Positions 1,565 to 18,845 of a stretch of DNA of 64,000 bases are shown here, piece by piece; the first letter of the stretch is position 1, and each line of letters opens with the position of its first letter. Origin of the DNA: an uncultured Alphaproteobacteria bacterium. GTDB lineage: Bacteria; Pseudomonadota; Alphaproteobacteria; JAPOUT01; G958296285. Where the stretch lies: positions 1,282,762-1,346,761 of the forward strand of contig OY282459.1 of assembly GCA_958296285.1 (NCBI GenBank), written 5' to 3'. Below the pieces are notes generated by a model. It was given only the letters and a program-made list of their open reading frames with translations. It was not told the origin of the DNA and searched no databases. A program made the translations under genes and the position numbers.

Positions 1565-1574
1565 TGGGCGCGTT

Positions 1575-2408
1575 ATGAAGCCTCTGTCGGAAATCGCCGT
1601 TGCCGAGACCGTCAAGATCGGAAACGATCTGCCGCTCCGAATCATCGCAGGACCGTGCGCCTTGGAAAGCCGCGACCACGCGATGGAAATGGCGTCCGCC
1701 CTCAAAGAAATCGCCGAAAAAGTCGGCATCGGACTCATCTATAAAACCTCCTTTGACAAAGCGAACCGCACCAGCATGACAGGCAAGCGCGGAATCGGCT
1801 TGAAAGACGCCATCCCAATCTTCGCCGAAATCCGCGAGACATATCTGCCCGTCCTGACCGATGTCCATCTGCCGGAGCAATGCGCGCCTGTCGCCGAGGC
1901 GGTGGACGTCCTCCAAATCCCCGCTTTTCTCTGCCGACAGACCGATCTCCTTCTCGCCGCCGCGAAAACAGGCAAGCCGATCAATGTCAAAAAAGGACAG
2001 TTCCTCGCCCCATGGGATATGGAGCATGTCGCGCGTAAAATCCTCAGCGCCGGAAACGATCGGATCATGCTGACCGAGCGCGGCGTCTCTTTCGGATATA
2101 ACAGGCTCGTCTGCGACATGCGCTCCCTTGTCATTTTGCGCGAGACGGGCTGCCCGGTCGTCTTTGACGCGACTCACTCTGTCCAAGAGCCGGGCGGAAA
2201 GGGAAGCGCTTCGGGCGGAGAGCGCCGCATGGCGCCTGTCTTGGCGCGCGCGGCGGTCGCGGTCGGCGTGGCGGCTGTTTTTATGGAGACGCATCAGGAT
2301 CCGGACAACGCCCCATCGGACGGGCCGAATATGATCCGCCTCGCCGATATGGAAGCGCTCTTGCGACAGATCAAGGAATTTGACGCCATCGCCAAGAGGA
2401 AGTCGTGA
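1575..2408 (+). CDS. kdsA: 2-dehydro-3-deoxyphosphooctonate aldolase (KDO-8-P synthase)
   Basis: [40 protein letters not shown] and the [13 protein letters not shown] motif. Start trimmed to the ATG at 1575, 11 nt after the pyrG stop. Confidence 0.9.
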
Positions 2409-3694
2409 AGATCGCCGAAATCAGAGTTTTGGAGATTTTGGACAGCCGAGGGCGTCCGGCGCTGGAGGTTGTCGCGCATTTGGAGGGGAATGGGCGGTCG
2501 GTCAGCGCGCGCGCGGCTGTGCCGTCCGGCGCTTCCACAGGACGGCATGAGGCGCTGGAACTCCGGGACGGCGACAAAAAGCGCTATCACGGCGGCGGAC
2601 TCCTCAAAGCATGCGCATCAGTGGAGGGCGAGATCGCCGAGGCGCTCGCCAAAATCAATCCGCTTGATCAGCGCCGCATTGACGAGACGATGATCCAGCT
2701 GGACGGAACGCCAAATAAGAGTCGCTTGGGCGCGAACGCGATTCTCGGCGTCTCTCTCGCTTTGGCGAAGGCGGCGGCGAAAAGCGCCGAAAAGCCCCTT
2801 TTCTGTCATCTCGCCGGCGATGGCGTCTCCCTCCTATTGCCGCGCCCGATGATGAACGTCCTCAATGGCGGCGCTCATGCCGACAATGCTCTGGATATTC
2901 AAGAATTTATGATTGTCCCCGCCGGCGCGTCTTCATTTCGCGAGGCGTGCCGCATCGGGGCGGAAGTTTTTCACGCCCTCAAAGATCGCTTGAGAAAGGC
3001 GGGGCATAGCGTCAATGTCGGCGATGAGGGGGGCTTCGCGCCCGATCTCCGATCTTCGCGCGAGGCGCTGGATTTTTTGATGGAGGCGATAAGCGCGGCA
3101 GGCTATCGCGCGGGAAAACAGGTTTTTCTCGCTCTTGATGTCGCCGCGAGCGAGATTCTTACGCCCGAAACGCGCTATCATCTTAAAGGGGAAGACGCAA
3201 TCTTAACTGCCGAAGAGATGACCGATACTCTCGCCAGCCTTGTCCAAGATTACCCGATCCTCTCCATTGAGGACGGACTCGCCGAAGATGATTGGGCGGG
3301 ATGGCGGCATATGACCGCCGCTTTGGGCGAAAAAACGATGCTGGTCGGCGACGACCTCTTCGCGACAAATATGGCGCGCCTCAAGCGCGGCATAAAAGAA
3401 CAATGCGCGACAGCGATTCTGATAAAACCCAATCAGATCGGAACCTTAACCGAGACTTTGGATGTCGTGTCTCATGCGCGAAATTGCGGCTTCGCTTGCG
3501 TGATCTCGCACCGATCGGGCGATACGGAGGATACGACCATCGCCGATCTGGCTGTCGCTCTCGGCACAGGCTGGATCAAGACCGGAGGACTCTCGCGCTC
3601 GGAGCGGACGGCGAAATATAATCGTCTGATGCGGATAGAGAAGATGCTCGGCAATGACGCCCGCTATGCCGGACTTGAGGGAATCCCAAGATGA
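2405..3694 (+). CDS. eno: enolase
   Basis: [54 protein letters not shown] start overlaps the kdsA stop by 4 nt. Confidence 0.95.
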
Positions 3695-4590
3695 GTCTCG
3701 CGGCAGAAAGAGAACCTCTGAGAAAGCCCGCATGGATTCGCGCGCCCATTCCTTCAGGCAAAATCTACCATCAGACGCGCGCGCTGATGCGGGAACTCAA
3801 TCTGGCGACTGTCTGCGAGGAGGCGGCTTGCCCGAATATCGGGACATGCTGGAAAAGCGGACATGCGACAATCATGATTCTCGGAGAAATCTGCACCCGC
3901 GCCTGCGCCTTCTGCAATGTTCAGACCGGGAAGCCTCACGCGCCGGATCCGTTGGAGCCTCAGCGCGTGGCGGCGGCGCTGCGGCGTCTGCGTCTGCGGC
4001 ATCTTGTTATCACGTCTGTGGATCGGGATGATCTCGCCGATGGAGGCGCGGCGCATTGGGCGAAGGTTATCGGCGCGGCGCGGGCGGAATCGCCATCCAC
4101 GGTCATTGAGGCGCTGACCCCCGATTTTCGCAATAAGGGCGATGCGATAGAGCTCGTTCTGAAAACGCGTCCTGATGTTTTCAACCACAATTTGGAGACT
4201 GTGCCGCGTCTTTATGCGCGCATTCGTCCGGGGGCGCGATATTTTCATTCTCTGCGGCTTCTGCAGAGGGCGAAGGAGGCGAATCCGCGGCTTTTCACGA
4301 AGTCGGGGATCATGGTCGGTTTGGGCGAAGCCAAAGAGGAAGTCCTGCAACTGATGGACGATTTGCGCTCGGCGTCCGTGGATTTTCTGACGATCGGGCA
4401 GTATTTGCGTCCGACAAAAAATCACGCGCCTGTGGAGCGTTATGTTTCGCCTGACGAGTTCGCCTCTTACGCGACAATCGCTCGCGCGAAGGGCTTTTTG
4501 ATGGTCTCGTCCAGCCCTCTGACGCGCTCTTCCTATCACGCGGCCGAGGATTTCGCGGCTCTGAAGAAGAGGCGCGATGCCCAAGATTGA
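3691..4590 (+). CDS. lipA: lipoyl synthase
   Basis: Two Cys clusters: [13 protein letters not shown] and the radical-SAM [10 protein letters not shown]. Confidence 0.95.
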
Positions 4591-5026
4591 CGTCCGCCGC
4601 CGCGTTCCGCGTCCCGCCAAGAAGATTTTCGCGCTGGTCGCCGATATTGAATCCTACCCCGAATTTCTGCCGGGCTGCGCGCGGGCGAGGCTTTTTGATC
4701 GCAAGGAGAAGAATCCGCGCGCCGAGCTTGTTTTCGCGTCCAAACGGCTGATGCTGATTGGCTTGCCGGGCGAGATCGCTTTCACGAGCGCCGTCTCGCT
4801 GAACCCCGAAGCGCTGACGATAGAAGCGCGGCAGATAGAAGGACTCTTTGAGAGTCTCACCTGCATCTGGCGATTCAAGCGGATTTCCAAAACCTCCTGC
4901 GATGTGAATTGCGCGCTGCGCTTCGCCTTCCGCGAAACATGGCTGCATCTCGCCGTGACGCCTCTGTTGAAAATCGCGATCTGGCAGACCATCGCCGCTT
5001 TTGAGGCGCGCGCGCTGAAGGACTAA
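4577..5026 (+). CDS. SRPBCC-fold protein (RatA / COQ10-like cyclase-dehydrase family)
   Basis: 149 aa with [14 protein letters not shown], typical of the polyketide-cyclase/RatA family. This family commonly follows lipA in alphaproteobacteria. Confidence 0.7.
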
Positions 5027-5523
5027 CGGGCTTTATCCAAAATCTTATGCAGAAGCGCGAAACCGGCGATGACGGTTTCGGCGCGAACCTCGGCGCGTCC
5101 TTTGTTTGGAAAGCGGCAGAGTTCATTCAAGGTCAGGCTTTTCGCGGCGGCGGCGATATGCACCAAACCCGGCGGATGGGTCTCGCTTCCCCCGGGGCCT
5201 GCCACGCCTGTCACGGCAAGGGCGACATCCACCCCTGCCGCGCGCAGCGCGCCCTCCGCCATGGCGCGCGCGACTTCCTCGCTCACCGCGCCATGCTCTT
5301 GAAGCAGGTTTTTTGGGACGCTGAGAAATTTCATCTTCGCTCTGTTGGAATAGGTGGAGAAGCCGCAGTCAAAAACGCGGGAGGATCCGGGAATATCGGT
5401 CAGAGCCGCGCTGATAAGACCGCCCGTGCAGGATTCGGCTGTCGCGAGTCTCAGACCCGCCTCCTCCATGCGTTTGAGAATCTCGCGCGCTTGTCCTTCG
5501 GTTTCTCGCGGCAGAGCGATCAT
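5023..5523 (-). CDS. CinA-family C-terminal domain protein (nicotinamide-nucleotide amidohydrolase PncC-like)
   Basis: TAESCTGGLISAALTDIPGSSRVFDCGFSTYSNRAK and VTGVAGPGG motifs. Confidence 0.8.
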   Translation of the reverse strand: MIALPRETEGQAREILKRMEEAGLRLATAESCTGGLISAALTDIPGSSRVFDCGFSTYSNRAKMKFLSVPKNLLQEHGAVSEEVARAMAEGALRAAGVDVALAVTGVAGPGGSETHPPGLVHIAAAAKSLTLNELCRFPNKGRAEVRAETVIAGFALLHKILDKAR

Positions 5524-6260
5524 GGCAGAGGCTGGGAAGCCCGCGCGATCGCGATGAAAGACGCCGCGCGCAAACTCGCCCCTCCGACAAGCGCCCCTTC
5601 CACATGCGGCAGCGACAAAATCGCTTCGGCATTGTTCGGCGAAACCGATCCGCCATAGAGAAGGTGCGCCTCTCCATGCCCTTTCTTGCGCAGAGAATCC
5701 TTGATTTCCTCATGCATCGCCGAAATCTCCCGCCCATTGGGGGTGCGTCCTGTGCCGATCGCCCAAACAGGCTCATAGGCGACCGCCGCGCCATGACGAT
5801 AAGCCCTGTCGGCAAGAGACAGCAACTGCCTTTGAACAACGGCGGAAGCCTCGCCCCTTTCGCGCTCTTTTTCTGTTTCGCCAACGCAGAAGATTGGCAT
5901 AAGCCCTGCCCTCTCCGCCGCCAGAGCTTTTCTGCCAATGACGGCGTCATCTTCGCCCGCGGCGCGCCGCTCCGAATGTCCGACAATGACAGCCTTCGCG
6001 CCGAGATCGGCGAGCATCTCGGCGCTCACAGAACCGGTATAAGCCCCCGAAACTTCCGCATGACAATCCTGCCCCCCCAGAGTCAAGGGCGATTCGGCGA
6101 TCTCGGCGAAGGAGGCGAGAAGAGTCGCCGGCGGGCATAGGAGAATGTCGCAAGAGATCTCCTCGCCATGCGCCCGCAAAAAGCGCATGATCTCCTCCAG
6201 CTCGGCGCGACTCTCGCGCAGCCCGTTCATCTTCCAATTTCCGGCGATGAGCTGTCGCAT
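5520..6260 (-). CDS. tpiA: triosephosphate isomerase
   Basis: MRQLIAGNWKMNG, VIVGHSERR, AYEPVWAIGTG. Confidence 0.95.
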   Translation of the reverse strand: MRQLIAGNWKMNGLRESRAELEEIMRFLRAHGEEISCDILLCPPATLLASFAEIAESPLTLGGQDCHAEVSGAYTGSVSAEMLADLGAKAVIVGHSERRAAGEDDAVIGRKALAAERAGLMPIFCVGETEKERERGEASAVVQRQLLSLADRAYRHGAAVAYEPVWAIGTGRTPNGREISAMHEEIKDSLRKKGHGEAHLLYGGSVSPNNAEAILSLPHVEGALVGGASLRAASFIAIARASQPLP

Positions 6261-6338
6261 CAGCCAGCCTGCCCCGCTTGTCTGAACCCCTCAGAGAAGC
6301 CTATCATGCGGGCGGGACTATCGCATAGGGGTCTTGTC

Positions 6339-8231
6339 ATGCTGGATCGCCTCAGACGCGCCACCGCCCATTGGATGGCGCGCATTCTGATCGGATTGTT
6401 GGCGCTGAGTTTCGCCTTTTGGGGAGTCGGCGATCTTGTCGCGCCGTCTCGTGATCCGGCAATCGCCGAGGTCGGGGACGCCGTCATTCCGCAGACTGTC
6501 TTCCAGCGCTCGCTAAACATCCTCCGCGAAAATCTGCGACAGCAGGGGCGCGCCCTCGCTTTTGACGAAATCCGCCAACTCGGACTGGATCGGCAGGTTC
6601 TGAACCTGCTGACTCGTCAAGAAGCGCTGTCGCTCGGGGCGGCGGCGCTGGGTCTGGACATTTCAGACAGGCGAATCGCCGAGGAAATCCGCGATGATCC
6701 CGCCTTCCAAGGACCTTTCGGCGGATTTGATCGGCAGACCTTCCGCGTGATTCTCGCCGAAGCGGGCTTGAGCGAGCAGCGATTCGCCGAAGAGCGCCGC
6801 AAAGTGCATCTGCGCCGCCAACTCGCCGCGACTGTCCTCGCCTCGCCCCCCGCCTCCGATATTCTCGCCCGCGCGCTCATCAAGCACAGTTTGGAAAAGA
6901 GGATTTTGGAATATGCCCTCCTCCCGATCTCTCTCGCGCCGAAGCCAAAGAGCCCAAATGACGAAACGCTCAAAAAATTCCTAACCCGCGAGCCTTCTCT
7001 CTTCATTCGCCCTGAGCGGCGCGACATTCTTTTGTTGGAGCTGAAGCCGGAGCATTTTTTCTCGTCTCTCGCCGTCTCCGAAGACGAAATCCGCGCCGAT
7101 TACGACGAGCGGCGCATGAGTTTCCGAACCCCTGAAAAGCGCGAAGTAGAGCAAATCATCTTCGCCTCGCGCGATGAAGCCGATGCCGCCCATGCCCGCC
7201 TCAAGAAGGGCGTCTCTTTCGCCGCGATCGCCGGCGAGAAGGGTTTGTCGGAGGAAGATCGGAATCTGGGGCTTCTCTCTGAGCGGGAGTTTTTGTCGCC
7301 CTCTTTGGCGGAAGCGGCTTTCGCTCTCAAAAAGGGCGAAGTGAGCGCTGTCGTGGAGGGGCCTTTGGGGCCGGTTCTGCTGCGAGTTGCCAAAATCGCG
7401 CGAGGCGAGGAGCGAAGCCTCGCTTCCGTCCGCGATCGCGTCAGGAGAGACATTCTGCGCCGCAAATCCGCCGGCGAGATGGAGACCATGCGAAATATCG
7501 TGGAAGACGCGCTGGCAGGGGGCGCGTCTTTGCGCGAAGCGGCGTCTGATCATTCGCTGCCGATCTCGGAACTGAAGGGCGTCTCCGCCGATGGAACAAG
7601 CGCGAAAGGCGCGAAACTGCCCGAGAGGGAGGGGCTGCTTGCCGCCGCCTTCGCCGCCGCGGAACATGAAGAGAGCGCCGCGCGAGAAATGGAAGAGGGC
7701 GGATATTTTTGGCTGGAAGTGGAAAAAATCCATCCCTCGCGCATTCCGTCTTTTGACGAGATTAGGGACGAAGCGCGGAAAATCTGGCGGAAGGAAACGC
7801 GGCGTCTCGCTCTCATTCGGCTCGCGGCGGATCTTGCCGAGCGCGGAAATGGGGGCGAAGATTTGCGCGATCTTCTCAAGAAATATGACCGCGCGCCGTT
7901 GAAGACGCCCGAAATTGGTCGTTTTTTCCGAAGCGATGTTTTTTCGGCGGAGCTTGTGGAGGCGGCTTTCGCAAGACCCGAAGGTCGTTTTGTCGCCGGC
8001 TCTGCCGAGATCGGCGACAGCGTGGTTCTTGTTCGGACGGCGAAGATCGTCAAGCCCTCCCCTTCCCGCGAAGAGGAGAGCGCTTTTAGAGACGCGCTTG
8101 GCGCGCGCTTGGCGAATGAGTTTTTGGAGCAATATGTCGTTTTTCTTTTGGAGCGTTATGGCGTTGTCGTTCACGGCGATGTTTTGGAGAGCGCGGTTCT
8201 GTCTGGCGGCGGCGGCTTGCTCGCGCCATGA
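6339..8231 (+). CDS. ppiD: periplasmic chaperone / peptidyl-prolyl isomerase PpiD-like (SurA N-terminal domain family)
   Basis: MLDRLRRATAHWMARILIGLLALSFAFWGV N-terminal anchor, about 630 aa, located upstream of trpE. Start trimmed from 6168 to avoid overlap with tpiA. Confidence 0.75.
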   Translation: MLDRLRRATAHWMARILIGLLALSFAFWGVGDLVAPSRDPAIAEVGDAVIPQTVFQRSLNILRENLRQQGRALAFDEIRQLGLDRQVLNLLTRQEALSLGAAALGLDISDRRIAEEIRDDPAFQGPFGGFDRQTFRVILAEAGLSEQRFAEERRKVHLRRQLAATVLASPPASDILARALIKHSLEKRILEYALLPISLAPKPKSPNDETLKKFLTREPSLFIRPERRDILLLELKPEHFFSSLAVSEDEIRADYDERRMSFRTPEKREVEQIIFASRDEADAAHARLKKGVSFAAIAGEKGLSEEDRNLGLLSEREFLSPSLAEAAFALKKGEVSAVVEGPLGPVLLRVAKIARGEERSLASVRDRVRRDILRRKSAGEMETMRNIVEDALAGGASLREAASDHSLPISELKGVSADGTSAKGAKLPEREGLLAAAFAAAEHEESAAREMEEGGYFWLEVEKIHPSRIPSFDEIRDEARKIWRKETRRLALIRLAADLAERGNGGEDLRDLLKKYDRAPLKTPEIGRFFRSDVFSAELVEAAFARPEGRFVAGSAEIGDSVVLVRTAKIVKPSPSREEESAFRDALGARLANEFLEQYVVFLLERYGVVVHGDVLESAVLSGGGGLLAP

Positions 8232-9772
8232 GCGCCCCTTTCCCTGACGCCTCCGCTTTCCGCGACATTCACAATGCAGGCAAGACGCAGATCGTTCGGC
8301 TGACGCTGCCTGCCGATTTGGAAACGCCTGTCGCCGCGATGATCAAATTGGCGGCGGGGAAGCGCGGCGCGTTCCTTTTTGAATCGGTGGAGGGCGGAGA
8401 GGCTCGCGGACGCTATTCCGTCATCGGCTTCGCGCCGGACGCCATTTGGCGATCTTACGGCGCGAGATGCGAGATCAATCGGCAGGCGGCGCGAGACCCT
8501 GACGCTTTTGAGATTTTGAAAGAGCCGCCTTTGGACGCGCTTCGCCGTTTCATCGCGGAGTCGCGTTTTGATCTGCCTGACGGTTTGCCGTCTTTGTCGG
8601 CGGGTTTGTTCGGCTATATGGGCTACGACATGGCGCGTCATGCCGAGCGTTTCGGGTCTCCGCCGCCTGACGCGATTGGCATTCCGGACAGCGTTTTCGC
8701 GCGTCCGTCTCGTCTTGTGGTTTTTGATTCGGTCAGCGACACGATGATTTGCATTGTTCGCTCGTCTCCGCGCCGGGGGCGCTCGGCTGACGAGGCTTAT
8801 GACGAAGCCTGTCGCGCTTTGCGCGAGATGCGGACGGCTTTGCAGAGGCCTCTGATGCCGAAGGAGCGCGGCGAGGATAGCCAGAGCGATGAAGGCGATG
8901 AAAGCGGCGGGGGCGGCGCGTCTTCGTCTGTTTCCATGCCGGTGCCGCGGTCCAACATGCAGCGCGCGCTTTATTTGGAGAAGGTTCGGCGCGTTAAGGA
9001 GTATATTTTCGCTGGCGACATTTTTCAGGCTGTTTTGAGTCAGCGTTTTTCGGCGTCTTTTTCGCTTTCGCCCATGACGCTGTATCGGTCTTTGCGGCGG
9101 ATAAATCCGTCTCCTTATCTTTATTATTTGGATTTTGGGGATTTTTCGGTTGTTGGCTCAAGTCCTGAGATTTTGGTTCGGCTGCGCGAGGGCGTGGTGA
9201 CGATTCGTCCGATTGCCGGGACTCGTCCGCGCGGGGGGTCGGCGGCGGATGATCTTCGCATTGGCGAGGAGTTGTTGTCGGATCCGAAGGAGCGCGCCGA
9301 GCATTTGATGTTGTTGGATTTGGGTCGGAATGATGTTGGGAGGGTATCGGAGATTGGTTCTGTTCGCGTGACGGAGCGTTTCGCGCTGCAGCGGACGTCT
9401 CATCTCATTCACATTGTTTCCAATGTTGAGGGTGTTTTGCGGCGCGGTTTGGAGGCTTTGGACGCTTTGATGGCGGGTTTTCCTGCTGGGACGGTTTCGG
9501 GCGCGCCGAAGATTCGGGCGATGGAGATTATTGATGAGTTGGAGGATGAGAAGCGGAGTTTATATGCGGGGGCGGTGGGGTATTTTTCGGCGAATGGGGA
9601 TATGGACAGTTGCATTGCCTTGCGGACGGCGTTGGTTAAGGATGGGGTGATGTATGTTCAGGCGGGGGGTGGGATTGTGGCGGATTCGGAGCCTGCTTAT
9701 GAGTATCGGGAGTCTGTGAAGAAGGCGGAGGTTTTGTTTCGGGCTGCTGAGGCTGTTGGAGGCTCCCGTTGA
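8228..9772 (+). CDS. trpE: anthranilate synthase component I
   Basis: LFESVEGGE, GDIFQAVLSQRF, PYLYYLDFGDF, GTVSGAPKIRAMEIIDELE. Start overlaps the ppiD stop. The last 4 codons and the stop lie inside the repeat element. Confidence 0.95.
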   Translation: MSAPFPDASAFRDIHNAGKTQIVRLTLPADLETPVAAMIKLAAGKRGAFLFESVEGGEARGRYSVIGFAPDAIWRSYGARCEINRQAARDPDAFEILKEPPLDALRRFIAESRFDLPDGLPSLSAGLFGYMGYDMARHAERFGSPPPDAIGIPDSVFARPSRLVVFDSVSDTMICIVRSSPRRGRSADEAYDEACRALREMRTALQRPLMPKERGEDSQSDEGDESGGGGASSSVSMPVPRSNMQRALYLEKVRRVKEYIFAGDIFQAVLSQRFSASFSLSPMTLYRSLRRINPSPYLYYLDFGDFSVVGSSPEILVRLREGVVTIRPIAGTRPRGGSAADDLRIGEELLSDPKERAEHLMLLDLGRNDVGRVSEIGSVRVTERFALQRTSHLIHIVSNVEGVLRRGLEALDALMAGFPAGTVSGAPKIRAMEIIDELEDEKRSLYAGAVGYFSANGDMDSCIALRTALVKDGVMYVQAGGGIVADSEPAYEYRESVKKAEVLFRAAEAVGGSR

Positions 9773-10066
9773 GGGGGGTTTGGGGGGGCGGCGAGCCGCC
9801 GCGGGCATCTTTTTCATAGAGAGGCATTTTGGCTTTACCCCAGGGGAACTAATGCATAGAAGCTTGAGGTGAAGGGGGGGTTGGGGGGCTTGCCCCCCAA
9901 GAAAAACCAAGCGGGCGCAAGCCCGCTACGGGCGGCGGGCTTCTCGCGCACTTGCGCTACGCGCTGCGTGCGCTTCGTTGCGCCACGCCCGCCGACCTTT
10001 TCGGGGGGGATTCCCCCCGACCCCCCCTTTCTCAAGGGGGGCTAGCCCCCCTTGACCCCCCTCAAG
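9758..10066. repeat. Mosaic G/C-tract palindromic intergenic element, copy A (modules Y, Z-prime, X)
   Basis: Y 9758-9879 matches the reverse complement of 17449-17562. X 9998-10066 matches 17395-17454 in direct orientation and contains a perfect G6-CTAG-C6 palindrome at 10036-10051. Z-prime 9909-9994 holds nested hairpins (agcgggc-gcaa-gcccgct; ggcgggc...gcccgcc). Confidence 0.9.
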
Positions 10067-10084
10067 AGGTGCTATAGTCGCCCC

Positions 10085-10672
10085 ATGATCCTCCTCATAG
10101 ACAACTACGACTCCTTCACATACAACCTCGTCCATTTCCTCGGCGAACTGGGCGCCAAAACCAACGTCCAACGAAACAACGCCACATCAGCATCAAAAGC
10201 CCTCGCCAAAAAACCCCAAGCCATCATCATCTCCCCAGGACCCAAAACCCCAAACGAAGCAGGAATATCCCTAAATCTCATAAAAACCGCCGCCAAACAC
10301 AATATCCCAACCCTCGGCGTCTGCCTCGGACACCAAACCATCGGACAAGCCTTCGGCGCGAAAATCACCCGCGCCATCCCCACCCACGGCAAAATCAGCG
10401 CCATCAACCACAACAGCAAAGGAGTCTTCCAAAAACTCCCCTCACCCCTCCAAGCCACCCGATACCACTCCCTCATCATAGAAGAAAATACGCTGCCCCA
10501 ATGCCTCGCCATCACCGCGAGAACATCAGACGGAACAATCATGGGAATCCAACATAAAACCCTCAACGCCCACGGAGTCCAATTCCACCCCGAAAGCATT
10601 GAAACCGAACACGGACACAAAATCCTCCAAAACTTCCTCAAACTCGCAGGAATAAAAGGAATAAAAAAATGA
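10085..10672 (+). CDS. trpG: anthranilate synthase component II (glutamine amidotransferase, TrpG/PabA)
   Basis: MILLIDNYDSFTYNLVHFLGELG, GVCLGHQ, GVQFHPES. Start trimmed to the ATG at 10085. Confidence 0.9.
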   Translation: MILLIDNYDSFTYNLVHFLGELGAKTNVQRNNATSASKALAKKPQAIIISPGPKTPNEAGISLNLIKTAAKHNIPTLGVCLGHQTIGQAFGAKITRAIPTHGKISAINHNSKGVFQKLPSPLQATRYHSLIIEENTLPQCLAITARTSDGTIMGIQHKTLNAHGVQFHPESIETEHGHKILQNFLKLAGIKGIKK

Positions 10673-11694
10673 GCGAAAACCTCAAAAAAACCCTCGCGCT
10701 TATCGCGTCAGGCGAAAAACTCGCGCCCGCCCAAGCCGAAACCGCCTTCCAACATCTCATGTCCGGCGAAGCCAAAGACGCCGAAATCGGCGCGCTCCTC
10801 ATGGGACTCCATATGCGCGGCGAAACAACAGACGAAATCGCCGCCGCCGCCAAAATCATGCGCGCCGCCGCCACGCCCGTCCAAGCCCCGAAAAACGCCA
10901 TAGACCTCTGCGGAACAGGCGGCGATATGAAAGGAAGCCTCAATATCTCCACCGCCGCGTCTTTTATAGTCGCCGCCTGCGGCGTCCCGGTGGCGAAGCA
11001 CGGAAACCGCGCGCTCTCGTCTCAGTCAGGCGCGGCGGACGTCCTTTTGGCGCTCGGCGCTGAAACCGCCCTCCCGCCCCAGACCATCGCCCAATGCATC
11101 AAGGAAACGGGCATCGGCTTCCTCTTCGCGCCCTCGCACCACCCCGCCGCGAGACATGTCGCGCCGGCGCGCGCGGCGCTCGGCATCAGGACAATCTTCA
11201 ACCTCCTCGGACCTCTCTGCAATCCCGCCTTCGTCAAACGGCAACTGATCGGAGTCTTCGCGCCCGAATGGCTGACGCCCCTCGCCGAAGTGCTGCGCGA
11301 TTTGGGAAGCGAGCGCGTTTGGATCGTTCATGGCTCGGACGGGATGGACGAAATCACCCTTTCCGGCGAAACCCGCGCCGCCGAACTCAAAAACGGCAAA
11401 GTCCGCCCCTTCACGATCACGCCCGAAGAAGCAGGACTTCCTCGCGCTCCATCGGAGAGTCTCAAAGGCGGGACGCCTCAACAGAACGCGGCGGCTCTGC
11501 GGAGACTGTTGGACAGCGAAAGCGAAAACGGGGCTTATAGAGACGCTGCCGTTCTGAACGCGGCGGCGGCGCTCGTCATCGCGGAGAAGGCAGGAGATTT
11601 GCGCGAAGGCGCGGCGCAAGCCTCCGAATCTCTTTCCAGCGGACGCGCCGCCGACACCTTTCACGCCTTTCGCAATTTCACGAAGAAGCCATGA
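10669..11694 (+). CDS. trpD: anthranilate phosphoribosyltransferase
   Basis: DLCGTGGDMKGSLNISTAASFIVAACGVPVAKHGNRALSS. Confidence 0.95.
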   Translation: MSENLKKTLALIASGEKLAPAQAETAFQHLMSGEAKDAEIGALLMGLHMRGETTDEIAAAAKIMRAAATPVQAPKNAIDLCGTGGDMKGSLNISTAASFIVAACGVPVAKHGNRALSSQSGAADVLLALGAETALPPQTIAQCIKETGIGFLFAPSHHPAARHVAPARAALGIRTIFNLLGPLCNPAFVKRQLIGVFAPEWLTPLAEVLRDLGSERVWIVHGSDGMDEITLSGETRAAELKNGKVRPFTITPEEAGLPRAPSESLKGGTPQQNAAALRRLLDSESENGAYRDAAVLNAAAALVIAEKAGDLREGAAQASESLSSGRAADTFHAFRNFTKKP

Positions 11695-12503
11695 GGCATA
11701 TCCTCCAAACAATCCAAACCCGCAAGCGCGAGGAACTCGCCCGCGCGCGAAAAGACGCCCCCCCATCCGCGTTGGAAGCGCGGACAGGCGAAGCTCCCGC
11801 AATCCGTCTTTTCCGTGAATCTTTGGAAAAGAGGCGCGAGACAAGCCCCGCGATCATCGCCGAGATTAAAAAGGCGAGTCCTTCCAAGGGCGTCATCCGC
11901 GAGGATTTTGACCCCGCCGCTCTCGCGGAAAATTTGGAGAAAGGGGGCGCGGCGTGTTTGTCGGTGCTGACGGATAAGGATTTTTTTCAAGGCGCGGCGG
12001 AGCATCTTGGAGAGGCGAAAGAGGCGACCGCGCTCCCAATCTTGCGCAAAGATTTTCTGATAGACCCCTATCAGGCGCTAGAGAGCCGCGCTTGGGGCGC
12101 GGACGCCGTGTTGTTGATTATGGCTCTGCTGGAGCGCCAGCAAGCCGCCGAGATCGCCGCCGCCGCGAAGGAATGGGAGATGGACGTCCTCGCCGAAGCG
12201 CATGACGAGAAAGAGTTGGAAGAGGCGCTGCGCTTAGAACCCGACATGATCGGCATCAACAATCGGAATCTCAAAACTTTTGAAACCTCGCTGGATGTGT
12301 CTTTGCGTCTTGCGCGAGAGATTCCGCGAGACGCGCTCGCCATCGCCGAGAGCGGCATTGAGAGCCATGACGACATTTTGCGTCTTCAAGAGGCGGGGAT
12401 CCATTGCTTCCTCATCGGCGAAACTTTGATGCGCGCCGATGATCCGGCGCGGAAGATTCGGGAGTTGTTAGGAGAAGAGGATGAAGAAGACAAGCCATCT
12501 TGA
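11691..12503 (+). CDS. trpC: indole-3-glycerol-phosphate synthase
   Basis: IIAEIKKASPSKGVIREDF, LRKDFLIDPYQ, INNRNLKTFE. Confidence 0.95.
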   Translation: MRHILQTIQTRKREELARARKDAPPSALEARTGEAPAIRLFRESLEKRRETSPAIIAEIKKASPSKGVIREDFDPAALAENLEKGGAACLSVLTDKDFFQGAAEHLGEAKEATALPILRKDFLIDPYQALESRAWGADAVLLIMALLERQQAAEIAAAAKEWEMDVLAEAHDEKELEEALRLEPDMIGINNRNLKTFETSLDVSLRLAREIPRDALAIAESGIESHDDILRLQEAGIHCFLIGETLMRADDPARKIRELLGEEDEEDKPS

Positions 12504-14614: not shown

Positions 14615-15985
14615 TCACAGCAGAAAATACGCCGCCAAGCCCAAAAAGGCGAAAAAGCCGACAACATCCGTGACTGTCGTCAAAAACACGCCGGACGAAA
14701 TGGCGGGATCGGCGCCGATTTTCTCTAATGCCAGAGGGATCAGAATTCCAGCGAGCGCGGCGGTCAGCATATTGACAATCACGGCGGCGAAAAGAACCAT
14801 CCCAAGCGCGAAATTCTTAAACCACGCGCCTCCAATCACCCCCAAAATCACGGCAAGCGATACGCCATTCAGAACTCCCACGCCGATCTCGCGCATGATG
14901 ATCCTGCGCTGATTCGCCGCGACAAGCTCGCGAGTCGCCAGCGCGCGCACGGCGACGGTGAGAGTCTGAATGCCCGCCACGCCTCCCATGGACGCCACGA
15001 TCGGCATCAGAACCGCCAGCGCCACCATTCCGGCGATCGCGTCCTCAAAAAGCGCGATGACGACAGACGCCAAAATCGCCGTCATCAGATTGACGAAGAG
15101 CCATAAAAAGCGTCTGCGCGCCGATTCCAGCACCGTGCCGGAGAGTCTGTCGCGTCCGACTCCGCCGAGCCTCTTGATGTCTTCGCTCGCTTCTTCGGTG
15201 ATGACTTCCACGATGTCGTCCGCCGTGATCATGCCCATCAGCATGCCGTTCTGATCCACGACGGGCGCGCTGACCAGATTATATCGGCGGAAGGCTTCGG
15301 CGACATCTTCGCGGTCTTTATGGGCTTCTATCTTGAGAGGCTCGCCCTGCATCAGGCTGTTCAGAGACTCTTCGCGCTTGGCGCGGACGAGGCGGCTCGT
15401 CAAGACGCTTCCGATGAGTCTCCATGTCGGGCTGACGATATAGATTTCGTAGAAATCCTTCGGGAGTTCGGCGCTTTGGCGCAGATGGTCTATGACGCGT
15501 CCTACGCTCCAGAAGGCGGGGACGGCGACCAGATCGCGCTGCATGAGGCGTCCTGCGCTGTCTATCGGGTAATCCAGTCCGCGCTCAATATCGGAGCGCG
15601 CGCGGAGGGGAACGCGATCTAGGATATTTCTTCGGCGGGTTTCGTCCAGCCCTTCCACGAGGGCGAGCGCGTCATCGGAGGCGATTGTGGCGAGGGCGGG
15701 CGCGAGTTTTTCGGGGGCGAGGAGCGGGAGGATATCGGCGAGGACGCCTTCTTCCAGTTCCGAGAGGATTTCGGGCTTGAGTTCGTCATTGAGGAGGGTG
15801 ATGAGTTTGTGTCGTTCTTCGGGTTTGAGGAGTTCTAGGATTTCGGCGGCGTCTGCGGCGTGGAGTTCGTGGATTTGGTTTTGGAGTTTCGCGCGATGTT
15901 CCGCGGTGATGGCTTCGCGCGTTTCTTGGAGGATATTTGGGACGGGCGTTTCGGTGGGTTCCGTGGTGTGGGGGGGATTAGACAT
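14615..15985 (-). CDS. mgtE: magnesium transporter MgtE
   Basis: N-domain, two CBS-like segments and a C-terminal TM domain (GGVAGIQTLTVAVRALA, DPAISSGVFLTTVTDVVGFF). Confidence 0.9.
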   Translation of the reverse strand: MSNPPHTTEPTETPVPNILQETREAITAEHRAKLQNQIHELHAADAAEILELLKPEERHKLITLLNDELKPEILSELEEGVLADILPLLAPEKLAPALATIASDDALALVEGLDETRRRNILDRVPLRARSDIERGLDYPIDSAGRLMQRDLVAVPAFWSVGRVIDHLRQSAELPKDFYEIYIVSPTWRLIGSVLTSRLVRAKREESLNSLMQGEPLKIEAHKDREDVAEAFRRYNLVSAPVVDQNGMLMGMITADDIVEVITEEASEDIKRLGGVGRDRLSGTVLESARRRFLWLFVNLMTAILASVVIALFEDAIAGMVALAVLMPIVASMGGVAGIQTLTVAVRALATRELVAANQRRIIMREIGVGVLNGVSLAVILGVIGGAWFKNFALGMVLFAAVIVNMLTAALAGILIPLALEKIGADPAISSGVFLTTVTDVVGFFAFLGLAAYFLL

Positions 15986-16033
15986 ACGCCGCGCCTTTTT
16001 TGCTTTTTTGTCTGTGGCGTATATTTAGCCTAT

Positions 16034-16076
16034 GGGGGCTGATTTATAAAAGCCCCCGACTCTTTTGGATCGGGGG
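16034..16076 (-). terminator. Three-arm alternative hairpin (terminator-like) between the DUF1640-like stop and the mgtE start
   Basis: Minus-sense RNA reads cccccga-N10-tcggggg followed by cuuuuau. The same G-tract can instead pair as gggggcu-N10-agccccc. Confidence 0.35.
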
Positions 16077-16096
16077 CGAGTTTGTGAGATTTTGTT

Positions 16097-16426
16097 CTAG
16101 GATGCTAATTTGAGAAGGATTGCGCCTGTCAGAGTGAAATTCGCTATCATGAAGGTGATGGTGACTCCGAACATCCATTTTAGCAGGCGCATGTCGGCTT
16201 GGACTTCTCCGAAGCGTTTTTCCATGTCTATTCTGAGTTCTCCGATCTGCGCGTTCATATCGGCGCGGAGTTCTCCGACCCGTTCTTCCACGTTCCGAAG
16301 CCGTTCTTCTATGTTCCGAAGCCGTTGCTCATCGCGGTTGGCTTCCAGCGCTTCTATAGCGGCGGTGGCTTTGTGATCGCTGACTTTCGCTTCTTTGAGG
16401 GCATCATAGACTGCGACGAGGCTCAT
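16097..16426 (-). CDS. coiled-coil membrane-anchored protein (DUF1640-like)
   Basis: 109 aa with heptad-like repeats (RLRNIEERLRNVEERVGELRADMNAQIGELRIDMEKRFGEVQADMR), then LKWMFGVTITFMIANFTLTGAILL as a C-terminal TM. GC lower than neighbours. Confidence 0.5.
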   Translation of the reverse strand: MSLVAVYDALKEAKVSDHKATAAIEALEANRDEQRLRNIEERLRNVEERVGELRADMNAQIGELRIDMEKRFGEVQADMRLLKWMFGVTITFMIANFTLTGAILLKLAS

Positions 16427-16496
16427 GGTTTATCTCCTTATGGTTGTGTTTTTGTAGCATTTTTGGTTCTTCTGCCGCAATCTTTAGAAGAAAGAA

Positions 16497-16657
16497 AAGG
16501 GGGGTGTGGGGGGTCGGAGACCCCCCGCGAAAAAGGGGGGATCGGGGGGATTCCCCCCCGAAAAGCGCGTGGGTGGGGTGGGGAAAAGAGCATTTGCGAG
16601 CGAAGCGTAAGCGTAGCGAGCAAATGCGACCCCACCCACGCGCCCCCTGCTCGCAGG
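16497..16657. repeat. Mosaic palindromic element, copy B (G/C-tract hairpins plus Z hairpin)
   Basis: 16543-16657 matches the reverse complement of 17289-17410. Z hairpin 16565-16643 has outer arms gcgcgtgggtgggg / ccccacccacgcgc and inner arms gcatttgc / gcaaatgc. Confidence 0.9.
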
Positions 16658-16672
16658 AGCTACTGATTCAGA

Positions 16673-17131
16673 TCAAAGATCGCCAAGCCTGCGCCGAAAC
16701 ACTTCATCAAACTTTTCTAATCTCTCCTTGAACCAAGCATATTGCGCGCATCTGTGGTTCATATTTTCCCAATCAGCTTCCTCTTCCCAGCTTTGGGTAA
16801 TAGATGGGAATCCCCATTGCAGTGGTGGAGGTGTGCCAATTTCCCTCTCAATGGCTTCTTTATCTGCATGCAGTTGGTTAAAACATTCCTTAGCGTAAAG
16901 CATGTCGGTGTCGGGGACAGGAAAACTTTTGCCATAGATAGAAAACCTAACAGCTACCTTGCGCGGCGGCGTCTTATAAAAACACGCCCATATGCGAAAG
17001 CCTGCTCTCCCCATAGAGAATCCTAGAGTGCTGCCAGACGACCGACAACGCCCGCGCCCAATATGTGAGTCAGACGCTCTGAGGCACTTAAGCAAACCTT
17101 GCCAATAGAGGCGGTGTTCTTCTTTAGACAT
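16673..17131 (-). CDS. hypothetical protein, DUF4268-like
   Basis: 152 aa, about 49% GC in a counted 100-nt window. Pattern LYWQGLL ... VRFSIYG ... FNQLHADKEAIEREIG..LQW ... W..FKERLEKF resembles DUF4268 from memory. No search was possible. Confidence 0.45.
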   Translation of the reverse strand: MSKEEHRLYWQGLLKCLRASDSHIGRGRCRSSGSTLGFSMGRAGFRIWACFYKTPPRKVAVRFSIYGKSFPVPDTDMLYAKECFNQLHADKEAIEREIGTPPPLQWGFPSITQSWEEEADWENMNHRCAQYAWFKERLEKFDEVFRRRLGDL

Positions 17132-17149
17132 TTGTCATTTCCGCAAAAA

Positions 17150-17236
17150 TGGTGCGGTCGAGAAGACTCGAACTTCCACGGGGTTGCCCCCACAGCGCCC
17201 TCAACGCTGCGCGTCTACCTATTCCGCCACGACCGC
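17150..17236 (-). tRNA. tRNA-Leu (anticodon GAG), CCA encoded
   Basis: Reverse complement GCGGTCGTGGCGGAATAGGTAGACGCGCAGCGTTGAGGGCGCTGTGGGGGCAACCCCGTGGAAGTTCGAGTCTTCTCGACCGCACCA. 7-bp acceptor stem, anticodon loop TTGAGGG, long variable arm, GTTCGAGTC T-loop. Confidence 0.9.
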
Positions 17237-17288
17237 ATCCAAAACACAATTAGCAGAAATTAACCAACCCCTCAACCTCGCTAGAAAT

Positions 17289-17562
17289 CTTGCGAACAGG
17301 GGGCGCGTGGGTGGGGTCGCATTTGCTCGCTCGCTACGCCACGAGTGGCTTCTCTTCGCTCGCAAATGCTTTTTTCCCCACCCCACCCACGCGCTTTCGG
17401 GGGGATTCCCCCGAACCCCCTTTCTCAAGGGGGGCTAGCCCCCCTTGACCCCCCTTCACCTCAAGCTTCTATGAATTAGTTCCCCCTGGGGCAAACCCAA
17501 AATGCCTCTCTATGAAAAAAATGCCCGCGGCGGCTCGCCGCCCCCCCTTAACGGGAGCCTCC
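17289..17562. repeat. Mosaic palindromic element, copy C (modules Z, X, Y in inverted order)
   Basis: Z 17303-17394, X 17395-17454 (G6-CTAG-C6 at 17429-17444), Y 17449-17562. Y overlaps the last 4 codons and the stop of cysH. Confidence 0.9.
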
Positions 17563-18312
17563 ATGAATCCCGCACTCCTCCTTCTCTAAACCACCCCATC
17601 TACCATCACGATACGAACCCCCCGAACCAACAGAAGCCGTGCAAGGAACACACCCTATAGACAAATACCCACGCTTCACCAACGGATGAACAACCAAACT
17701 ATGCCGCTCAACATAAGAACCAAGAGCCTCCTGATCCCAATCCACAAGAGGATTAATGGAAAACCGCGCCACGCTCCCCGCCATCTCCCGAAACTCTATC
17801 GCCTCCAAAATCGCCCGACTCGCCGTCTGAAAACGCTTCCGACCCGTGATCACCGCCTCAAATCCCCCCAACGCCCGCCGCAACGGCAAAACCTTCCGAA
17901 AATGACAGCAAGCGTCAGGATCCTCGCTCCAAAGAGAACCATCCGAATCCAACCGCGCCCGATCCACAGGATCAGGACCAATGGAACGCAAATCCGTCAA
18001 ACCCAGCCGATCCTGCAATAAATCACGATAGCGAAGAGTCTCCGGAAACAACTTCCCCGTATTCAGAAAAATCACGGGAACAGACGGATCAATCTCCGAA
18101 ACCATATGCAGCAAAACCACCGACTCCGAACCAAAAGACGAAACCACCGCAATCCTGCCCGGAAAAACCTCCTTGATCATCGCCTCAAGAAGAGGCTTGC
18201 CGGACAGCGCATATTCACGCCGCAACATCTCAAGACGCGCCGCCGCCTCGGCAGGAACCTCCCCCGAAGCGCGAGGCATCGGAATCTCGGCGCGATTCTC
18301 TAAACCAGCCAT
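17548..18312 (-). CDS. cysH: phosphoadenosine-phosphosulfate (PAPS/APS) reductase
   Basis: SFGSESVVLLHMV, DPDACCHFRKVLPL, C-terminal EKEECGIH motif. Confidence 0.9.
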   Translation of the reverse strand: MAGLENRAEIPMPRASGEVPAEAAARLEMLRREYALSGKPLLEAMIKEVFPGRIAVVSSFGSESVVLLHMVSEIDPSVPVIFLNTGKLFPETLRYRDLLQDRLGLTDLRSIGPDPVDRARLDSDGSLWSEDPDACCHFRKVLPLRRALGGFEAVITGRKRFQTASRAILEAIEFREMAGSVARFSINPLVDWDQEALGSYVERHSLVVHPLVKRGYLSIGCVPCTASVGSGGSYRDGRWGGLEKEECGIHGGSR

Positions 18313-18845
18313 TTTTGATCCTCCATCATCGCGCGGCTTTTCTCACGGACAGCGCTCGGCGCTAATCCCTGATCGCGCCACCGATCCCGCGCCGCCGACA
18401 GCGCCAACAAACGATCGCGCCATTCCGCCCCATAATGGCGAGAGAGATCATCACGAAGCATCCGCGCCGCCGAAGGCGATCTGCCTCCGGTGGAAACGGC
18501 GAAAAGCAAATCCCCTCGCCGCAAAATGGACGGAACATGAAAATCGCACAAAGCCGGAATGTCTTCTGTGTTGACAAGAGCGCCGACAGCGCGCGCGCGA
18601 GCCGCGAGCGGACGGGCTTCCTCTTCCGAAAATCCCGCGATGAACAGAATCGCGCCGCGCATCTCCTCATCTTTCGGAAGACGCCGCCGAATCGGAAAAC
18701 TCATCAGAGCCTCACCGCGCGGCGCGTAGATTTCCGCCTCCATCTTTGCCGCTCCGATGAGCCGACAGCGTTTTAACAGCGGCTCGCCCTCGCCAATGAG
18801 GAGAATCTTTTTCCGATTCGGGTTAAGGACGATCGGCAGCATCAT
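18300..18845 (-). CDS. precorrin-2 dehydrogenase / sirohydrochlorin ferrochelatase-like (siroheme synthase N-terminal domain)
   Basis: KILLIGEGEPLLKR Rossmann-like start and LVNTEDIPALCDFHVPSILRRGDLLFAVSTGGRSPSAARMLRDDL, matching the CysG-N/SirC signature. Overlaps the cysH start. Confidence 0.7.
   Translation of the reverse strand: MMLPIVLNPNRKKILLIGEGEPLLKRCRLIGAAKMEAEIYAPRGEALMSFPIRRRLPKDEEMRGAILFIAGFSEEEARPLAARARAVGALVNTEDIPALCDFHVPSILRRGDLLFAVSTGGRSPSAARMLRDDLSRHYGAEWRDRLLALSAARDRWRDQGLAPSAVREKSRAMMEDQKWLV

Follow-up and report, generated by a model that had tools for sequence, protein, structure and literature searches.

The DNA analysed here, hereafter the window, is a stretch of 64,000 nucleotides of contig OY282459.1 from an uncultured alphaproteobacterium, with a G+C content of about 59%. 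Its genes include, in this order, tpiA, a surA-like gene, trpE, trpG, trpD, trpC, moaC, moeA, a DUF1489 gene, mgtE, a tRNA-Leu gene and cysH. Hairpin-rich elements lie between trpE and trpG (locus 1) and between mgtE and cysH (locus 2), and each locus is flanked on both sides by an arm of roughly 1 kb in which base composition differs sharply between the two strands. The arms, and their effect on the proteins encoded in them, above all TrpG, are the subject of this report. The features concerned are the following:

8228-9772, + strand: trpE, anthranilate synthase component I, 514 aa, whose homologues carry PF04715/PF00425; the part from about 8400 onward makes up the left arm of locus 1, where the sense strand is rich in G+T and the plateau spans 9000-9772.
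9773-10084: element A, between trpE and trpG, at the centre of the skew switch; G6-7/C6-7 hairpins at 9883, 10003 and 10036, a longer GC hairpin at about 9925-9995 and an X module of about 95 nt.
10085-10672, + strand: trpG, encoding the glutamine amidotransferase subunit; it falls entirely within the plateau of the right arm, and its sense strand is rich in A+C.
10669-11400, + strand: 5' part of trpD, in which the plateau of the right arm ends and its shoulder follows.
15200-15985, - strand: 5' part of mgtE (gene 14615-15985; Pfam MgtE_N, CBS and MgtE), left arm of locus 2.
16490-16650: element B, between mgtE and cysH; G6/C6 hairpins and a hairpin with a 15-bp stem at 16565-16643.
17290-17547: element C, which combines a hairpin with a 15-bp stem, G6/C6 hairpins at 17399 and 17429, and a reversed copy of the X module.
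17548-18312, - strand: cysH, PAPS reductase (Pfam PAPS_reduct, E=4.5e-40), wholly in the right arm of locus 2.

Strand asymmetry was expressed as a skew index, (G+T-A-C)/N, in 300-bp intervals. The index has a mean of -0.03 over the window (standard deviation 0.12), but lies between +0.30 and +0.43 to the left of the loci (8900-9900 and 15600-16200) and between -0.33 and -0.49 to their right (10000-10900 and 17400-18400); in 200-bp intervals, GC skew and AT skew each reach about ±0.5. Each arm has a plateau of about 700-800 bp beside the element, followed by a shoulder, and reaches baseline some 1.3-1.5 kb away. In the plateaus, + strand G+T at third positions is 0.86-0.90 on the left, as in trpE 9000-9772, and 0.04-0.09 on the right, the corresponding shoulder values being 0.63-0.70 and 0.24-0.36. 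The gradient runs within single genes. Third-position A+C, which is 0.35-0.56 in control genes, declines along trpE from 0.45 through 0.30, 0.21 and 0.16 to 0.07 in the last 100 codons, is 0.93-0.94 in trpG, and then relaxes to 0.80, 0.67 and 0.56 in successive 100-codon blocks of trpD. At locus 2, third-position G+T on the + strand climbs from 0.60 to 0.84 along mgtE towards 15985 (codons 1-100 of this gene have an A+C-rich sense strand, with third-position A+C of 0.83), and the G+T-rich sense strand of cysH has a third-position A+C of 0.09-0.16, with a shoulder that extends to about 18900. Intergenic DNA of the arms shares the bias.

The two loci agree in polarity: on the + strand G+T prevails to the left and A+C to the right, so that either strand is G+T-rich 5' of the element. 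This polarity is independent of gene orientation, since trpE and trpG are read rightward and mgtE and cysH leftward. Read in one orientation, the four arms hardly differ in base composition (A 0.13-0.14, C 0.16-0.19, G 0.37-0.41, T 0.28-0.33). Twofold Q/K/E codons end in A or G in a ratio of 74:1 in arms with an A+C-rich sense strand and 1:60 in arms with a G+T-rich one, compared with 175:227 in controls; for twofold NNY codons the C:T ratios are 52:15, 13:78 and 188:192, respectively. Two properties of mitochondrial skew are therefore found here: enrichment of C>T plus A>G on one strand, at the twofold sites, and a gradient away from a defined point, in the profile of third-position G+T. The G6-loop-C6 hairpins are confined, within the 64 kb, to these two loci, and element A folded as single-stranded DNA gives -99.5 kcal/mol (z=-6.8 relative to shuffled sequences).

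Several familiar sources of composition bias were compared with this profile and rejected. Leading/lagging replication skew switches at the origin or terminus only, whereas here two sign switches lie within 7 kb, the cumulative GC skew otherwise falling monotonically across the window. Transcription-associated asymmetry is contradicted by the sense strands of trpG, trpD and mgtE, which are A+C-rich (third-position 0.80-0.94), and translational selection on codon usage by the fact that trpG and mgtE prefer A and C at third positions but trpE and cysH G and T. As for a diversity-generating retroelement, the arms are mutually dissimilar and both A and C are affected (no search was aimed at a reverse transcriptase gene). 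Compared with one another as a giant inverted repeat or as a template/variable repeat pair, the arms gave chance-level matches only. By the same index, mildly skewed tracts occur elsewhere in the window, at 14.6-14.9, 31.7-32.1, 44.7-45.0 and 58.9-59.2 kb. The one at 31.7-32.1 kb is probably no further arm: its + strand is T-rich (index +0.34), it has no G6/C6 hairpin and it holds - strand open reading frames (ORFs); judged from its sequence, it probably encodes the K/A-rich tails of ribosomal proteins.

An initial annotation of the window had proposed that the skew has altered the amino-acid composition of TrpG and of parts of TrpE, MgtE and CysH. Its assignment of 10085-10672 to trpG holds: the product matches PF00117 (GATase class I, E=5e-59) over residues 3-185 and, over its full length, the solved TrpG/PabA chains 6qur_A, 8rp1, 1qdl_B and 1i7q_B. 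The peptides quoted there, including PGPKTP, are present, and the motifs of the catalytic Cys (GVCLGHQ) and His/Glu (HPES) are retained, as it had stated. TrpG was compared with a panel of 119 orthologues at 60-69% identity. K/N/T/P/Q/H account for 39.5% of its residues vs 27.5±2.1% in the panel (maximum 32.9%; z=+5.8), and G/V/F/W/C for 14.9% vs 22.2±1.7% (z=-4.4). Taken singly, N (z +5.9), I (+4.1), T (+3.4) and K (+2.9) are enriched, and V (-3.8), D (-3.0) and C (-2.5) depleted. Of the residues K/N/T/I/Q/H named in the proposal, the first four are thus in excess, but Q (+1.4) and H (+0.1) are unremarkable; likewise, of the residues E/V/R/D/G/A said to be commoner in homologues, V and D are, but A (-0.2) is not.

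CysH is shifted towards residues of the other kind, as had been suggested for its C-terminus. In a panel of 75 sequences, its last 80 residues stand outside or at the edge of the range, with G/V/F/W/C at 0.34 vs 0.23±0.04 (z +3.0) and K/N/T/P/Q/H at 0.14 vs 0.27±0.05 (z -2.7). The shift proposed for the C-terminal part of TrpE is modest and patchy in composition, segment z values lying between -3.8 and +2.9, and this small effect fits the highly conserved chorismate-binding domain.

The direction of change was obtained from the closest relative without the elements. L002 is a 470-kb contig that carries P0122, the best homologue of TrpE outside its own strains (64% identity, well above the others). 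The whole block is syntenic in L002, with a trpE-trpG spacer of 45 bp and a mgtE-cysH gap that holds tRNA-Leu only, and the contig is unskewed throughout (300-bp index -0.18 to +0.20, third-position A+C 0.39-0.61). Had this relative shown the same residue usage, the initial annotation would have regarded its proposal as refuted; the usage is not shared. Codon-aligned differences between the window and L002 were counted as G/T>A/C or A/C>G/T. At third positions the counts are 93 vs 5 for trpG and 8 vs 115 for cysH. Those at positions 1+2 of non-synonymous codons are listed here, with Fisher p values against the pooled controls:

trpG: G/T>A/C 52, A/C>G/T 14 (p=1e-6).
mgtE codons 1-100: G/T>A/C 36, A/C>G/T 10 (p=6e-5).
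trpD codons 1-100: G/T>A/C 26, A/C>G/T 9 (p=0.003).
trpE codons 258-514: G/T>A/C 18, A/C>G/T 44 (p=0.005).
cysH: G/T>A/C 24, A/C>G/T 70 (p=4e-5).
Five control genes pooled: G/T>A/C 314, A/C>G/T 341.
Distal trpD: G/T>A/C 30, A/C>G/T 32.
Distal mgtE: G/T>A/C 13, A/C>G/T 24.
Distal trpE: G/T>A/C 13, A/C>G/T 23.

Non-synonymous differences run in the skew direction by roughly 3-4:1 in every arm and about 1:1 in controls, which bears out the view that mutational pressure has driven amino-acid change. Mapping by codon position and direction, as had been advised, gives the expected G/T>A/C excess in trpG at both classes of site. The direction of change, unlike the composition, also upholds the TrpE shift, and the P/T/H/N/Q-rich N-terminus of MgtE is skew-driven as claimed, L002 serving in this case as the single reference in place of an orthologue panel.

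The alignment columns of TrpG were classed by conservation among the 119 orthologues, those conserved in at least 90% being called conserved. Third-position A+C is 0.92-0.95 in each class, so the mutational input is uniform. The K/N/T/P/Q/H fraction equals that of the panel in conserved columns (0.34 vs 0.32), exceeds it in intermediate columns (0.30 vs 0.19) and is doubled in variable columns (0.60 vs 0.29), where G/V/F/W/C drop to 0.04 vs 0.13. The notion that the pressure is held back only at functional residues is correct in that conserved columns are unshifted, but the constraint is graded rather than confined to such residues: A+C at positions 1+2 is 0.55-0.78, compared with 0.94 at position 3. 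Of the 84 conserved columns, 79 are kept in the window and 73 in L002. Two of the five deviations, C62S and G92A, are common with L002, and three, D32N, C54K and A173E, are specific to the window; D32N and C54K follow the skew direction, the latter being the change of PGPCTP to PGPKTP that had been pointed out at the start.

Two close strains carry the same arms: L001, on a 1.72-Mb contig, and L059, a 15.8-kb contig from a third assembly. The sample for the arms is thus two loci in one lineage, represented by three close strains; searches of protein databases for homologues of TrpG, TrpE and CysH found no intermediate relatives. An exact match to the KdsA of the window was found on the L059 contig only, and no window protein among those compared is identical to its L001 counterpart. 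The order trpE-trpG-trpD-trpC is the same in the window, L001, L059 and L002. The three strains are 95-99% identical and share the arms almost base for base, while their elements vary by whole modules, such as the X module; the arms therefore predate the divergence of the strains and outlast the turnover of modules. The window and L001 diverge unevenly, by about 6.8% in 11000-12000 vs about 1% upstream (97-9000), which suggests recombination imports.

What is established here is the pattern and its direction, that it goes with the elements and not with gene orientation, and that constraint filters it. The reading that accounts for them, and that very probably is correct, is a strand-asymmetric, transition-dominated mutation pressure acting on both sides of the two hairpin-rich elements, with a plateau of about 0.7-0.8 kb, and fading by about 1.3 kb. 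On each strand, the stretch 5' of the element would lose C and A and gain T and G. Synonymous sites would be pushed almost to fixation, and non-synonymous sites would follow only where the protein tolerates change, so that variable positions of TrpG and of the MgtE and TrpD N-termini would drift to K/N/T/I-type residues, which have A/C codons, and those of the TrpE C-terminus and CysH to G/V/S-type residues, which have G/T codons, purifying selection keeping conserved and catalytic residues.

As to the source of this pressure, I infer that the strand 5' of the element is most likely left single-stranded repeatedly. This could come about in two ways. Synthesis on both templates may be blocked at the element, leaving a leading-strand gap ahead of it and an unfinished Okazaki gap behind; alternatively, the element may be cut and the ends resected 5'>3'. 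Events of either kind are known from palindromes engineered into the E. coli chromosome (PMC4245961, PMC4213011, PMC4752480). In either case the exposed strand would be the one on which deamination (C>U, A>hypoxanthine) becomes fixed. The near-equal lengths of the arms point slightly to a process that acts symmetrically, for example a break or nicking on both sides. Misinsertion of G·T by a polymerase during gap filling would give the opposite polarity, and damage to the template therefore seems to fit better. I consider the odds to be even that the elements embody an undescribed mutational process, in which a structured palindromic repeat causes chronic strand-specific exposure or targeted processing over about 1 kb on each side, persistently and strongly enough that the synonymous sites of neighbouring essential genes are recoded almost completely and the evolution of their proteins is steered.

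Several observations weigh against mutation pressure of this kind, or restrict it. The timing and causality, element first and skew afterwards, rest on L002 as the single outgroup. A scan of genome contigs for WWGGGGGGCTAGCCCCCCWW found the G6CTAGC6 hairpin at at least 56 loci in unrelated taxa, the lineage of the window not being among the matches listed, and none of these loci has arms beyond ±0.2; the hairpin alone is therefore insufficient. Divergence between the strains is not higher in the arms (trpG has 1 difference in its 588 bp), which gives no sign of a currently raised mutation rate. In a relative-rate test that took the orthologue consensus for its outgroup, replacements unique to one lineage are fewer in the window than in L002 (19 vs 29 in TrpG, 30 vs 57 in TrpE), as are panel-rare residues (18 vs 27 and 48 vs 65, respectively), so that the pressure has redirected tolerated changes and neither sped up divergence nor eroded function. 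Spontaneous deamination of adenine is far slower than that of cytosine, yet the A/G polarisation is at least as strong as that of C/T; deamination would therefore need help, from genome G+C pressure or from an enzymatic or polymerase component. In favour of mutation pressure, the recent changes that parsimony among the three strains polarises go with the skew by 7:1 in the two plateaus, vs 68:70 and 29:31 in the flanks, which suggests that the bias is still operating, but the count of 7:1 is small.

Single-strand exposure could also arise from transcription. If strong transcription converged on the elements from both sides, the non-template strand would be exposed in R-loops and deaminated, and G-rich transcripts would stabilise the R-loops in a positive feedback. 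Such a model accords with trpE and cysH, which are read towards the elements and have G+T-rich sense strands, and with the terminator-like hairpins in the elements, one of which lies in element C (17541-17527, - strand). However, trpG, trpD and mgtE, whose sense strands are A+C-rich, point away from the elements, so that the model has to postulate strong antisense transcripts across essential genes, an assumption that nothing supports. Moreover, a consensus scan called no promoter-like sites, and the skew peaks beside the element and not beside any promoter. I regard this explanation as improbable.

The chances of a dedicated mutator are about equally slim. In this case the element would recruit a nickase, a deaminase or an error-prone polymerase that works outward on each strand, akin to nick-directed mutators. 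The defined tract length, with a plateau that ends fairly sharply at about 0.75 kb, the symmetry of the arms and the polarisation of A>G as strongly as of C>T all agree with an enzyme. On the other hand, no candidate enzyme adjoins the elements, and the cargo between elements B and C differs among strains that share the arms (a DUF4268 ORF in one, a GST gene in the other). The targets, furthermore, are housekeeping genes, whose diversification has no obvious use, and strain divergence in the arms is low.

It is very unlikely that selection rather than mutation keeps the arms biased, be it for an unstructured, G-poor 5' mRNA, for Rho loading or for the avoidance of pairing with the element. Outward transcripts would be C-rich and G-poor on both sides, and trpG is possibly leaderless and begins right after the element, as this explanation would have it. 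Yet the bias affects 92-95% of third positions over about 750 bp, plus intergenic DNA, too many sites for weak selection; it goes with position in the DNA rather than with the sense of the transcript, since trpE and cysH are biased the opposite way at their 3' ends; and amino-acid changes track it only where constraint is low. Import from a strongly skewed genome, or an artefact of assembly or sequencing, deserves next to no credence, for although the patchy strain divergence suggests recombination imports elsewhere in the region, gene order is the same as in L002, the skew is graded inside single genes, ORFs and catalytic motifs are intact, and the arms are common to three independent assemblies and are not repeats of one another.

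Mutation pressure centred on the elements, as preferred here, has partial counterparts in known systems. The skew of mitochondrial genomes is attributed to the time spent single-stranded, in exposure-gradient models. In animals it predicts whether amino-acid usage is CA-rich or GT-rich (Min & Hickey 2007, PMC2779903). As in the window, animal mitochondrial DNA has G+T-rich and A+C-rich strands produced by C>T plus A>G, a positional gradient, and an effect on amino acids with CA or GT codons; unlike it, the window has local arms of about 1 kb that extend in both directions from an intergenic element of a bacterial chromosome and change within genes, and strand-displacement replication is not implied. 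In bacteria, leading/lagging bias shapes codon and amino-acid usage, for example in Borrelia, Chlamydia muridarum (PMC2089121) and Lawsonia (PMC2671203). It lies on the same keto/amino (G+T vs A+C) axis and makes the amino-acid usage of orthologues strand-dependent, but it is a genome-scale effect of far lower amplitude that switches at the origin and terminus only, compared with ±0.5 over about 1 kb in the arms. The skew at the present intergenic elements has the polarity of a terminus.

Palindromes in the E. coli chromosome form hairpins on both template strands that are cleaved by SbcCD (PMC4245961), and engineered ones give replication-dependent hairpins and breaks (PMC4245961, PMC4213011, PMC4752480). 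They too are structured inverted-repeat elements of a chromosome, and repair of their chronic breaks resects the flanks and synthesises them anew over kilobases, in a geometry that predicts the polarity found here. They differ in being engineered, 246-480 bp long and without a reported evolutionary footprint in composition, and cleavage or stalling at the present elements is putative. Strand-coordinated mutation clusters are known as kataegis and from damage to long single-stranded DNA; in them C is mutated on one side of a break and G on the other, through 5'>3' resection. They share the polarity switch of the arms but are somatic, eukaryotic, restricted to C and set in APOBEC contexts, whereas the arms are germ-line, near equilibrium and include A>G. 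Transcription-associated asymmetry is an excess of C>T on the non-transcribed strand. Again single-strand exposure turns one strand G+T-rich; it predicts, however, a G+T-rich sense strand in all affected genes, and trpG, trpD and mgtE are the opposite.

In a limited searchable literature, nothing relevant was found on skew arms that extend locally in both directions from bacterial repeats, or on strand-asymmetric hypermutation near them. That skew shapes protein composition is known at the scale of genomes; a sub-genic form centred on an element has, as far as found, not been described. As regards the proteins, a known principle recurs here in a local and extreme form; the element-centred skew behind the effect looks new. 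It offers a natural experiment on mutation bias and purifying selection, with unbiased and extreme segments within TrpE and among operon neighbours, in which the synonymous response is saturated and the amino-acid response graded by site constraint. Local composition of this kind can distort phylogenies, estimates of expression from codon usage and calls of horizontal transfer for single genes. If the arms are a footprint of stalling or breakage, the fragility of non-B DNA in vivo and the length of single-stranded tracts would be readable from genomes, and an element-centred process, if real, would parallel the strand-coordinated mutagenesis seen at breaks, in a natural and heritable form.

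The elements themselves share several parts. Element B repeats a part of element C in inverted orientation, and element C adjoins and overlaps the cysH stop codon. The X module, GGCGGCGAGCCGCCGCGGGCAT...GAGGTGAAGGGGGG, is at 9790-9885 in the window; it is present in element A of the window and not in that of L001 or L059, and occurs also in element B of L001 and in element C of both the window and L001 (related coordinates in L001: 9640-9720, 16640-16745 and 17890-17990). A search with the X-module pattern gave 0 matches in JGI metagenome contigs, and Rfam gave nothing at the gathering score for the elements, hits with E<1 being at chance level only. The 15-bp stems GCGCGTGGGTGGGGT/ACCCCACCCACGCGC (16565-16643, 17303-17394) contain G-rich motifs similar to Chi sequences known from other bacteria, a resemblance that might be relevant if break processing produced the arms. 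Eight mildly skewed hairpin loci in the metagenome-assembled genome MFD01476.bin.2.53 (L014, L016, L019, L031, L035, L039, L040 and L057) were set aside as identical copies of a 1.27-kb insertion sequence. The latter, unrelated to the window and present in at least 8 near-identical copies, has a GGGGGGCTAGCCCCCC hairpin near one end.

The unrelated genes trpE and cysH, on opposite strands, share their terminal 13-15 nt, GGAGGCTCCCGTT(G/A)A, which encode '...GGSR*' (9758-9778, 17542-17562), and the shared sequence continues directly into the G-run of the element and the X module. The C-termini of TrpE and CysH in L002 differ from those in the window, and it seems that the end of the element supplies the last codons and the stop of both genes. 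Upstream of trpG (10052-10087), the sequence TTGACC, 15 nt, TGcTATAGT ends 6 nt before the ATG and is kept in all three strains; the consensus sigma-70 scan passed over it, its spacer being 15 nt long. Element A, which now separates trpG from trpE, may in this way carry a putative promoter for a leaderless trpG-trpD-trpC transcript.

Locus 2 holds three further genes:

16097-16426, - strand: a small ORF of 109 aa, coiled-coil/transmembrane, between mgtE and element B.
16673-17131, - strand: an ORF with a DUF4268 domain (Pfam E=1.3e-7), in the cargo between elements B and C (16673-17236).
17150-17236, - strand: tRNA-Leu(gag), called by ARAGORN, in the same cargo.

The 109-aa ORF is a chimera of two tandem copies found in L001 (L001 16009-16526), with a weak DUF7310 match only. 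It is partly skewed (third-position G+T on the + strand 0.69), and probably is a more recent, rearranging insert. The cargo is unskewed (third-position G+T 0.45). What adjoins the 3' end of tRNA-Leu(gag) varies: the window has the DUF4268 ORF, L001 a GST gene (16895-17706), and L002 no cargo (17548-17783). The site looks like a tRNA-linked integration hotspot.

Away from the two loci, a repeat-rich, secreted/autotransporter-like ORF of at least 1912 aa (58254-63992, - strand) reaches the end of the window, and a low-G+C stretch at 44873-44932 (- strand) matches the Rfam DUF3800-VI RNA motif with 40.6 bits (gathering score 35).

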